Below, piece by piece: positions 48,571-51,201 of a stretch of DNA of 64,000 bases; within the stretch, counting starts at the first letter, position 1, and every line of letters begins with the position of its first letter. A program made the position numbers and the translations under genes. This stretch comes from Escherichia coli. Its GTDB lineage: Bacteria; Pseudomonadota; Gammaproteobacteria; Enterobacterales; Enterobacteriaceae. The notes under the pieces were generated by a model. It saw nothing but the letters and a program-made list of their open reading frames with translations, ran no database searches and had not been told where the DNA came from. The stretch is taken from NCBI RefSeq assembly GCF_003334355.1, contig NZ_QOWP01000023.1. One strand, written 5' to 3'.

Positions 48571-49602
48571 ATGTCTGCATTTACCCCGGCAAGTGAAGTC
48601 TTGCTGCGTCACAGTGATGATTTCGAACAAAGCCGTATTCTGTTTGCCGGAGACTTACAGGATGACCTGCCCGCGCGTTTAGATACCGCGGCCAGCCGTG
48701 CTCATACCCAGCAATTCCACCACTGGCAGGTATTAAGCCGCCAGATGGGGGATAACGCCCGTTTCAGTCTGGTCGCCACGGCGGATGACGTCGCAGATTG
48801 CGATACGCTGATTTACTACTGGCCGAAGAACAAACCGGAAGCCCAGTTCCAGTTGATGAATTTACTTTCTCTGCTGCCAGTGGGGACAGATATTTTTGTC
48901 GTTGGCGAGAACCGCAGCGGCGTGCGCAGCGCCGAGCAGATGCTGGCAGATTATGCGCCGTTGAATAAAGTCGACAGCGCTCGTCGCTGTGGCCTCTATT
49001 TTGGTCGTCTGGAAAAACAGCCGGTATTTGATGCCGATAAATTCTGGGGCGAATACAGCGTCGATGGCCTGACGGTCAAAACGCTGCCTGGCGTGTTTAG
49101 CCGCGACGGTCTGGATGTCGGTAGCCAGTTGCTGCTCTCGACGTTAACCCCGCACACGAAAGGTAAAGTGCTGGATGTCGGCTGTGGCGCGGGTGTGCTT
49201 TCAGTTGCCTTTGCGCGCCATTCGCCGAAAATTCGTCTCACCTTGTGCGATGTCTCTGCGCCAGCGGTAGAAGCCAGCCGCGCAACACTTGCGGCCAACG
49301 GTGTTGAAGGTGAAGTCTTTGCCAGCAACGTCTTTTCCGAGGTGAAAGGTCGTTTTGATATGATCATCTCCAACCCGCCGTTCCACGATGGGATGCAAAC
49401 CAGCCTGGATGCGGCGCAAACGCTGATTCGCGGCGCGGTGCGTCATCTTAATAGCGGCGGCGAGCTGCGAATTGTAGCGAACGCCTTCCTGCCTTACCCG
49501 GACGTGCTGGATGAGACATTTGGCTTCCATGAAGTGATTGCGCAAACCGGGCGTTTCAAGGTGTATCGCGCCATTATGACCCGCCAGGCGAAGAAAGGTT
49601 AA
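48571..49602 (+). CDS. rsmC: 16S rRNA m2G1207 methyltransferase RsmC
   Basis: 343-aa ORF with SAM-binding [11 protein letters not shown] and NPPFH motifs. Confidence 0.95.
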
Positions 49603-49614
49603 TTATCTCGCCGA

Positions 49615-49772
<158 letters not shown>

Positions 49773-49841
49773 ACCAAACCTGCACGTTAGTTTCCTGATG
49801 GACATTTTTCCAGCAATTACACCTCCGGCGATAATTAACTA

Positions 49842-49869
49842 TTGACGAAAAGCTGAAAACCACTAGAAT
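49842..49869 (+). promoter_or_regulatory. sigma70 promoter of the tRNA-Leu operon (leuV promoter)
   Basis: TTGACG (-35), 16-bp spacer, TAGAAT (-10), then GC-rich discriminator gcgcc; about 40 bp upstream of the tRNA. Confidence 0.7.
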
Positions 49870-49910
49870 GCGCCTCCGTGGTAGCAATTCTTTTTAAGAA
49901 TTGATGGTAT

Positions 49911-49997
49911 GCGAAGGTGGCGGAATTGGTAGACGCGCTAGCTTCAGGTGTTAGTGTCCTTACGGACGTGGGGGTTCAAGTCCCCCCCCTCGCACCA
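49911..49997 (+). tRNA. leuV: tRNA-Leu (anticodon CAG)
   Basis: 87-nt sequence GCGAAGGTGGCGGAATTGGTAGACGCGCTAGCTTCAGGTGTTAGTGTCCTTACGGACGTGGGGGTTCAAGTCCCCCCCCTCGCACCA; cloverleaf with long variable arm, anticodon loop UUCAGGU, encoded CCA. Confidence 0.97.
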
Positions 49998-50035
49998 ATT
50001 ATCTTTACTTCCTTTCTTGTTTCTTCCTTGATTTT

Positions 50036-50272
50036 TCATCCCTGATTCAAATTCATTATCATCAGCATGATGGCAGCAATAAGCGCCAGGCACGATGGTA
50101 GCAAAACGTAATGCCGTAACTGTTTGTGATACAGCATCACCGGCGTCAATACTAATCCCATCAGAATGACAATCCGCCACTGATCCGGCGATAAATCCGC
50201 ATACATCAGCCCTGCAATCAGCAATCCCGGCAGCAACACTCCCCAGCCACTGCCCAGCGTACGTTGCAACAT
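50036..50272 (-). CDS. yjjZ: Small inner-membrane protein YjjZ (DUF1435)
   Basis: 78-aa ORF MLQRTLGSGWGVLLPGLLIAGLMYADL... (trimmed from 115-aa ORF-track call); Fur box just upstream. Confidence 0.75.
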   Translation of the reverse strand: MLQRTLGSGWGVLLPGLLIAGLMYADLSPDQWRIVILMGLVLTPVMLYHKQLRHYVLLPSCLALIAAIMLMIMNLNQG

Positions 50273-50287
50273 GGTTTCATCTCTTTC

Positions 50288-50306
50288 ATTGATAATGATA
50301 ACCAAT
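50288..50306. promoter_or_regulatory. Fur box upstream of yjjZ
   Basis: GATAATGATAACCAATATC versus Fur consensus GATAATGATAATCATTATC (16/19). Confidence 0.6.
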
Positions 50307-50374
50307 ATCATATGATAATTTTTATCATTTGCAAGCCAGAGAAATCCCTTGCTATCGGGTAAACCTATCGCTAG

Positions 50375-50400
50375 GATTAGCAATCATTATCATTTAGATT
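50375..50400. promoter_or_regulatory. Fur-box-like site upstream of fhuF
   Basis: gattagcAATCATTATCatttagatt, about 15-40 bp upstream of the fhuF ATG. Confidence 0.5.
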
Positions 50401-50412
50401 ACTATCCCGATT

Positions 50413-51201
50413 ATGGCCTATCGTTCCGCACCGCTCTATGAAGATATCATCTGGCGAACGCATCTCCAGCCGCAGGATGCTGGGCTTGCACAAGCCGTAC
50501 GTGCGACGATCGCCAAACATCGTGAACATTTGCTCGAGTTTATCCGCCTGGATGAACCCGCTCCGCTTAACGCCATGACGCTGGCGCAATGGTCATCACC
50601 GAATGCGCTAAGTTCTCTACTCGCGGTCTATTCCGATCATATCTATCGCAACCAACCAACGATGATCCGCGAGAACAAACCGCTGATCTCACTATGGGCA
50701 CAATGGTATATCGGCCTGATGGTGCCACCATTAATGCTGGCGCTACTGACGCAGGAAAAGGCATTAGATGTGTCGCCGGAACATTTCCATGCTGAGTTTC
50801 ACGAAACCGGACGCGTCGCCTGTTTCTGGGTCGATGTGTGTGAAGATAAAAACGCAACACCACATTCGCCGCAGCAGCGAATGGAAACGTTAATCAGCCA
50901 GGCGCTGGTTCCGGTTGTGCAGGCACTAGAAGCGACCGGAGAGATCAACGGCAAACTTATCTGGAGTAATACCGGTTATTTGATCAACTGGTATCTCACT
51001 GAGATGAAGCAGCTGCTCGGCGAGGCGACGGTTGAATCGCTGCGCCATGCCCTCTTTTTTGAGAAAACGCTCACGAACGGTGAAGATAATCCACTCTGGC
51101 GTACCGTGGTACTGCGCGATGGCCTGCTGGTGCGCCGCACTTGCTGCCAGCGTTATCGCTTACCGGATGTGCAGCAATGTGGCGATTGTACGCTGAAATG
51201 A
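50413..51201 (+). CDS. fhuF: Ferric-siderophore reductase FhuF
   Basis: 262-aa ORF with C-terminal Cys cluster RRTCCQRYRLPDVQQCGDC (2Fe-2S site). Confidence 0.95.
   Translation: MAYRSAPLYEDIIWRTHLQPQDAGLAQAVRATIAKHREHLLEFIRLDEPAPLNAMTLAQWSSPNALSSLLAVYSDHIYRNQPTMIRENKPLISLWAQWYIGLMVPPLMLALLTQEKALDVSPEHFHAEFHETGRVACFWVDVCEDKNATPHSPQQRMETLISQALVPVVQALEATGEINGKLIWSNTGYLINWYLTEMKQLLGEATVESLRHALFFEKTLTNGEDNPLWRTVVLRDGLLVRRTCCQRYRLPDVQQCGDCTLK

Follow-up and report, generated by a model that had tools for sequence, protein, structure and literature searches.

Two separate Fur operators in the divergent yjjZ-fhuF promoter region of Escherichia coli and their arrangement in other Enterobacteriaceae

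The genes yjjZ and fhuF of Escherichia coli lie back to back and are transcribed away from each other, and the short stretch of DNA between them raises the question of whether both genes are placed under the control of Fur from this region and, if so, whether this is achieved by one shared operator or by two. That Fur controls fhuF was already recognised in the 1990s. The locus was analysed in a window of 64,000 nucleotides (the whole stretch of E. coli DNA under study), for which the original prediction had described a divergent yjjZ/fhuF pair separated by a 140-bp spacer. The coordinates of the open reading frames confirm this layout. The start codon of yjjZ occupies positions 50272-50270 on the minus strand and the ATG of fhuF begins at 50413 on the plus strand, so that the intergenic region (50273-50412) measures exactly 140 bp. 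As argued below, this is almost certainly a known Fur-controlled divergent promoter region in which two separate operators act by promoter occlusion and from which transcription proceeds outward when iron is scarce. The coordinates of the features are collected in Table 1.

The identity of the two genes is supported by their surroundings and by their protein families. The RefSeq annotation of the best-matching genomes gives the order rsmC, tRNA-Leu, yjjZ (DUF1435), fhuF and bglJ. The 1.7-kb stretch around the spacer matches all 5426 complete E. coli genomes, and the yjjZ-fhuF region is found at 90% identity or more in 5425 of them. FhuF is a full-length equivalog match to NF007932 (478.5 bits for a cut-off of 300, residues 1-262) and also scores 230.6 bits against TIGR03951 (cut-off 63.85). 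For YjjZ, the NCBIfam search found no family model. The protein agrees with the description of DUF1435 (PF07256), the motifs LGSGWG and MLYHKxLRH being invariant in the YjjZ alignment, and PF07256 is present in all 120 YjjZ homologues among the matches listed, of 622. Three hydrophobic stretches were detected in YjjZ by a hydropathy scan, and the protein appears under '3TM fragments' in the literature (PMC5437024). Many database entries list YjjZ as 91, 98 or 133 aa (e.g. P0004, P0034, P0001), and the 91-aa entries carry added N-terminal residues (MILVIII...) that are translated through the Fur box (50273-50311, minus strand). Because the yjjZ transcription start at 50299 lies downstream of the start codons of these longer forms, their N-termini probably reflect annotation errors, and YjjZ is probably the 78-aa form.

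The DNA on the rsmC side of yjjZ shows some strain-level variation. A single tRNA-Leu(CAG) gene lies between rsmC and yjjZ (49911-49997), where K-12 MG1655 has three in tandem (leuQ, leuP, leuV). The closest complete genomes likewise have a single copy, so the difference reflects natural variation in the number of copies in the leuQPV operon. Two REP-type palindromes that match Rfam naRNA4 (RF02564) are located between rsmC and the tRNA-Leu promoter (49613-49763), and the copy at 49681-49763 reaches 70 bits, above the gathering threshold. A small-RNA explanation of the spacer was rejected because an Rfam scan of 49500-50700 with permissive E-values gave no match there, the only matches being the tRNA and the REP/naRNA4 elements upstream.

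Table 1. Features of the yjjZ-fhuF locus, in window coordinates
Feature	Position	Strand	Details
yjjZ coding sequence, 78 codons	50036-50272	-	ORF and translation; RefSeq names in near-identical E. coli genomes
fhuF1, high-affinity Fur footprint	50284-50336		-37 to +16 of yjjZ; -98 to -46 of fhuF
Promoter-like element TTGATA-16-TATGAT facing fhuF	50289-50316	+	10/12; inside the strong array; without a mapped start
Overlapping 7-1-7 Fur sites TGATAATGATAACCA and TGATAACCAATATCA	50290-50304 and 50296-50310		12/14 each; 6-bp offset
19-bp Fur box GATAATGATAACCAATATC	50291-50309	+	17/19 against GATAATGATAATCATTATC
yjjZ sigma-70 promoter	50299-50334	-	-35 TTGCAA 50334..50329; 16-bp spacer; -10 TATGAT 50312..50307; start A 50299
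Strongest Fur site TGATAATTTTTATCA	50313-50327		13/14 to the 7-1-7 motif; absent from the original prediction
Putative ancestral deletion junction (approximate)	50337-50339		Meeting point of two homology blocks
fhuF promoter (putative hexamers)	50349-50383	+	-35 TTGCTA 50349-50354; 17-bp spacer; -10 TAGGAT 50372-50377
fhuF2, low-affinity Fur footprint	50366-50419		-16 to +38 of fhuF
Conserved core of the fhuF-proximal operator	50378-50399		Includes AATCATTATCATT
fhuF-proximal Fur-like motif AATCATTATCATT	50382-50394		Weak: 12/19 to the 19-mer
fhuF (siderophore-iron reductase, 262 aa), coding sequence	50413-51201	+	ORF; NCBIfam equivalog NF007932

Candidate Fur sites were scored in two ways, against the 19-bp consensus GATAATGATAATCATTATC and against the 7-1-7 motif TGATAATnATTATCA. 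The box near yjjZ, GATAATGATAACCAATATC, had been predicted with 16 of 19 matching positions. The site itself holds and its count does not, since two mismatches make 17/19; the value of 16/19 is the score of its reverse-complement reading. This box is the sole position in the 64 kb with three mismatches or fewer, for an expectation of 0.00 from shuffles, and 100 dinucleotide shuffles of the 64-kb window contained no such 19-mer. Shuffling of the 140-bp spacer, which is 67% A+T, never produced 17/19 in 5000 dinucleotide shuffles, and the maximum reached was 16. The centre of the strongest site, TGATAATTTTTATCA, lies at 50320 and coincides, by coordinate mapping, with the 22.3-bit site that Chen et al. 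place at 4603779. Together with TGATAATGATAACCA and TGATAACCAATATCA it forms an array of about 40 bp (50290-50327), and the 6-bp offset between these two is what Fur dimers usually show when they overlap (Chen et al., PMC2189734). Across the 64 kb, the 7-1-7 motif is matched with at most three mismatches at six positions, and four of the six fall within the 140 bp, where 0.09 would be expected; none of the 5000 local shuffles gave four. Agreement with the Fur consensus goes beyond chance for the sites at 50291-50309 and 50313-50327 and for the two 12/14 sites. Outside the spacer, an 11/14 match to the 7-1-7 motif, TCAAATTCATTATCA, was observed at 50047-50061, within yjjZ at the 3′ end of its reading frame and close to where the tRNA-Leu gene ends, and is probably due to chance.

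The second Fur-like site of the original prediction, AATCATTATCATT, was placed just before fhuF, where TAGCAATCATTATCA (50378-50392) agrees with the 7-1-7 motif at 11 of 14 positions. One match of this quality arises in 8.5% of the local shuffles, which is not significant by sequence alone. The site is credible because it is conserved and footprinted, and not because of sequence statistics; it is on the conservation and on the published footprint that the prediction finds its backing. Further, the invariant core AATCATTATCATTT of the fhuF-proximal block has the pattern of a Fur half-site. Chance resemblance to Fur boxes in AT-rich intergenic DNA is another explanation to consider for a spacer of this base composition, and the frequency with which a box of the second kind turns up in shuffled DNA speaks in its favour. 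The absence of any 17/19 box or of any set of four 7-1-7 matches from the local shuffles, the absence of a 19-mer with three mismatches or fewer from the window shuffles, the deep conservation of the sites and the published binding and expression data exclude this explanation, whose probability is negligible.

Direct evidence of binding at this locus comes from Chen et al. 2007 (NAR), who predicted and then footprinted with DNase I two regions that Fur protects within the spacer of K-12, and also performed a gel shift (PMC2189734). The high-affinity region, fhuF1 (4603763-4603815), contains sites of 16.1, 20.8 and 22.3 bits; the low-affinity region, fhuF2 (4603680-4603733), contains sites of 14.6 and 9.3 bits (PMC2189734). 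K-12 coordinates were converted to those of the window by using the yjjZ and fhuF start codons of Chen et al. as anchors, and these anchors were confirmed against the K-12 record. Both footprinted regions correspond to the two predicted boxes. The window differs from K-12 at three of the 140 spacer positions (50274, 50341 and 50374), none of them in a Fur-site core. The fhuF1 stretch is identical in both, and the difference at 50374 falls inside the fhuF -10 hexamer and the low-affinity footprint.

Expression data point in the same direction. In the ROSE study, no transcription from the yjjZ start at 4,605,777 was seen in the wild type; a fur knockout did use this start, and in vitro it was a strong one (PMC10301672). 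ChIP-exo and RNA-seq in nine E. coli strains place yjjZ in their core Fur regulon (PMC10164565), and it is also part of the direct Fur regulon of the UPEC strain CFT073 (PMC7157518). In Salmonella, iron repressed a PyjjZ-gfp reporter, which showed 23-fold induction in the host cytosol, where iron is poor (PMC8432900), and a yjjZ-lacZ fusion was controlled by Fur, with sigma-S counteracting (PMC8970401). As for fhuF, the fusion fhuF::lacZ is the reporter of the Fur titration assay (PMC2189734). The proposed iron- and Fur-dependent co-regulation of yjjZ with fhuF matches these published footprints, ChIP-exo, fur-mutant and iron-reporter data. The checks suggested along with it, namely Fur footprinting or ChIP and expression in a fur mutant, had already been published with positive results (PMC2189734; PMC10164565; PMC10301672). 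Nothing in the evidence contradicts Fur control, which is already known for both genes, and the prediction was a correct and ordinary observation.

How Fur binding translates into repression can be seen from the position of the promoters. The published yjjZ start (4,605,777) maps to 50299 and leaves a leader of 27 nt. The same yjjZ hexamers with a 16-bp spacer are given in PMC3946193; PMC10301672 writes the promoter as TTGCAA-18-TATGAT, against the 16 bp counted in the sequence and in PMC3946193. The fhuF start sites quoted in Chen et al., 4603717/4603716 (PMC2189734), map to 50382/50383, with a leader of 30-31 nt, and the putative -35 and -10 hexamers of fhuF were assigned from their spacing to these starts. 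The -35 hexamers of the two promoters are 14 bp apart and their start sites 83 bp apart. The strong footprint lies over the -35, the -10 and the start of yjjZ, and the weak one over the -10, the start and the leader of fhuF.

Two further features of the promoters deserve mention. The fhuF -10 hexamer reads TAGGAT in the window and TATGAT in K-12 (a G/T SNP at 50374), and the TAGGAT form is conserved across other genera (97% at the SNP position). Because of this conservation, the K-12 hexamer, which is closer to consensus, is taken as the derived one, and it could make a stronger fhuF promoter. The promoter-like element that faces fhuF within the strong array (Table 1) resembles a published prediction in the same direction, TTGATA-19-GATAAT (PMC3946193). 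Other genera do not conserve its TTGATA hexamer, and the element is probably a side effect of the sequence of the Fur boxes.

With this arrangement, Fe2+-Fur dimers sit on two separate operators when iron is sufficient. The high-affinity array, in which three 7-1-7 sites overlap or adjoin one another (50290-50327), covers the -35, -10 and +1 of yjjZ, and the lower-affinity site (core 50378-50399) covers the fhuF -10 and +1 together with its leader. Occupancy of each promoter by Fur excludes sigma-70 RNA polymerase. When iron becomes scarce, Fur leaves the DNA and yjjZ and fhuF are transcribed outward. Published work on this sequence documents the binding, the transcription starts and the dependence on fur and iron. 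Because the Fur site of fhuF is the weaker, this gene would be expected to be released at milder iron limitation than yjjZ, which fits both the use of fhuF::lacZ as a sensitive reporter (PMC2189734) and the complete silence of yjjZ in the wild type (PMC10301672).

The original prediction spoke of the two genes as sharing one region. This is correct for the location of the sites and not for the control that they exert, as there are two operators, each over its own promoter. A single shared operator of the fepA-fes type is contradicted by the presence of two footprints with an unprotected gap between them (50337-50365), and also by the distance of about 1.4 kb that separates the operators in 69 other species. 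From this it is inferred that the two operators act largely independently. The strong array may also influence fhuF, because no more than 14 bp separate it from the fhuF -35. The same short distance can be taken further, to a situation in which the strong array (50290-50327) represses both promoters, either through Fur polymerising along the DNA or through an upstream fhuF promoter, and the weak site (50378-50399) is dispensable. The extension of Fur protection at higher concentration (PMC2189734) agrees with this possibility, and so does the fhuF-facing promoter-like element in the array, for which a similar prediction exists (PMC3946193). However, the mapped fhuF starts (50382/3) are at least 46 bp downstream of the strong footprint, and the two footprints are separate, with the gap between them left unprotected. 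The TTGATA hexamer on which an upstream promoter would depend lacks conservation. The weak site, for its part, is 92% conserved and is the sole Fur-like site beside fhuF in the 69 species, where the yjjZ operator is located 1.4 kb away from it. Repression of both genes from the strong array is improbable in view of these data, and the reading with two operators, each serving its own gene, is preferred.

A different function has to be considered for the fhuF-proximal block (50354-50399), which could be mainly an OxyR operator whose conservation reflects peroxide control of fhuF. Repression of fhuF by oxidised OxyR has been reported (PMC8115020), and a motif that scores 13/20 for OxyR at 50354-50390 belongs to the seven highest-scoring positions of the 64 kb. 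This weak OxyR-like motif overlaps the spacer, the -10 and the +1 of fhuF. The score of 13/20 is equalled, however, at unrelated places of the window without a known OxyR role, Fur protects 50366-50419 in vitro (PMC2189734), and the half-site pattern of the invariant core is that of Fur. Functions of Fur and OxyR at this site are not mutually exclusive. That OxyR binding is the main reason for the conservation of the block is very unlikely, and the block is best regarded as the Fur operator of fhuF. The primary work on the fhuF start site and on OxyR binding is said to be that of Zheng et al. 2001.

The comparison with other bacteria revealed that the two operators are not always found side by side. 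A scan with the YjjZ alignment, using one genome per species, yielded 80 loci, all of them from Enterobacteriaceae. The genes yjjZ and fhuF are linked in 78 of the 80, the other two loci being too short to include fhuF. The distance between the start codons is 140 bp in Escherichia, 156-158 bp in Silvania and 1396-1561 bp in 69 other species, and the tight divergent layout occurs only in Escherichia and Silvania among the 80 loci. The linkage of yjjZ and fhuF was not accepted as a sign of functional partnership, since gene order is generally conserved and a third gene usually lies between them. In Salmonella arizonae this gap codes for a membrane GGDEF protein of 354 aa, whose gene shares its strand with fhuF and points away from yjjZ. 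A membrane GGDEF diguanylate-cyclase gene of the STM4551 type, of about 1.3 kb, is present between yjjZ and fhuF in the 69 other species (loci L008-L082, e.g. L080, 1686-2750). The 354-aa protein matches the diguanylate-cyclase domain model and has GGEEF at residues 265-269, the first E being residue 267. It shares this numbering with STM4551, for which GGEEF with E267 has been described.

Both operators are conserved in the orthologous promoters. In nearly all 80 loci the sequence GATATTGGTTATCATTATC precedes the yjjZ ATG by 17-19 nt (typically 18), and across genera AGGATTGGCAATCATTATC precedes the fhuF ATG by about 20-28 nt. Over 73 non-Escherichia species, the yjjZ Fur array shows 88.5% identity to E. 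coli, compared with 30% further upstream. Over the 69 species, the core of the fhuF Fur site reaches 92% identity, compared with 27% upstream of 50345, and the fhuF promoter hexamers are 98% (-10) and 87% (-35) identical. The homology to other genera upstream of yjjZ stops near 50336 and that upstream of fhuF begins near 50340. Because the two homology blocks meet in this way, at about 50337-50339, and because each operator keeps to its own gene elsewhere, the interpretation of the compact Escherichia spacer as a fusion of two Fur-controlled promoters, both left intact and brought together by deletion of the GGDEF gene, is well supported by the sequence comparison. A search of the available literature found no paper on fhuF together with STM4551, nor on the deletion fusion.

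Variation of the gap was also observed outside Escherichia. Silvania confinis (L061) and S. hatchlandensis (L064) are without the GGDEF gene (positions ~1000-1157 and ~2845-3000), and their junction sequence differs from that of Escherichia, which suggests a second, independent loss of the gene. In Citrobacter sp. Res13-Sevr-PEB04-36 (L040), the fhuF-yjjZ gap of 1561 bp is about 120 bp longer than in other Citrobacter, which suggests that a short stretch was inserted into the GGDEF gene or close to it. Any functional consequence of the deletion fusion is pure conjecture. One idea, which is rather unlikely, is that the loss of the GGDEF gene, which brought the strong yjjZ operator to 14 bp upstream of the fhuF -35, rewired the control of fhuF in E. 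coli and turned the strong array into an auxiliary operator, by cooperative spreading of Fur or by promoter interference. If this were true, the iron response of E. coli fhuF would differ from that of Salmonella or Citrobacter fhuF. The only new element of the analysis is evolutionary, that is, the fusion that a deletion appears to have made, and it represents a modest footnote rather than a new mechanism. Such a fusion would amount to a small natural experiment on operator context versus Fur sensitivity, and the locus illustrates that a real operator can be recognised from raw sequence.

The enterobactin promoters fepA-fes, fepB-entC and fepD-entS drive divergent iron-uptake genes from short spacers with Fur sites, and are repressed by promoter occlusion. 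The yjjZ-fhuF region resembles them in its divergent genes, its short spacer with Fur sites and its occlusion. Unlike these promoters, those of yjjZ and fhuF stand back to back under separate operators of different affinity instead of one operator over both, only fhuF has a known role in iron metabolism, and the arrangement would be a recent fusion. Studies of the enterobactin bidirectional promoters are included in the reference list of PMC2189734. A second relative is the aerobactin promoter iucA, which, like the yjjZ array, has overlapping Fur sites with a 6-bp phase over the -35 and the -10; Table 3 of Chen et al. lists 13 walkers for iucA and 4 for fhuF1 (PMC2189734). In contrast to iucA, the yjjZ array is shorter (~40 bp), and the gene under it codes for a small membrane protein. 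The Fur clusters of fhuF-yjjZ in K-12 (PMC2189734) represent the same locus, with identical Fur-site cores, identical -35 hexamers in both promoters and an identical yjjZ -10; the differences are only at the level of the strain (TAGGAT versus TATGAT in the fhuF -10 and one versus three copies of tRNA-Leu(CAG)). Finally, in the Salmonella yjjZ/STM4551/fhuF locus, yjjZ and fhuF are orthologous to those of E. coli and have the same Fur boxes, with unchanged distances to the start codons, and Salmonella yjjZ is regulated by Fur and iron as is E. coli yjjZ. The Salmonella locus differs in having a 354-aa GGDEF gene between the two, which points away from yjjZ, is located upstream of fhuF and places the two operators about 1.4 kb apart.
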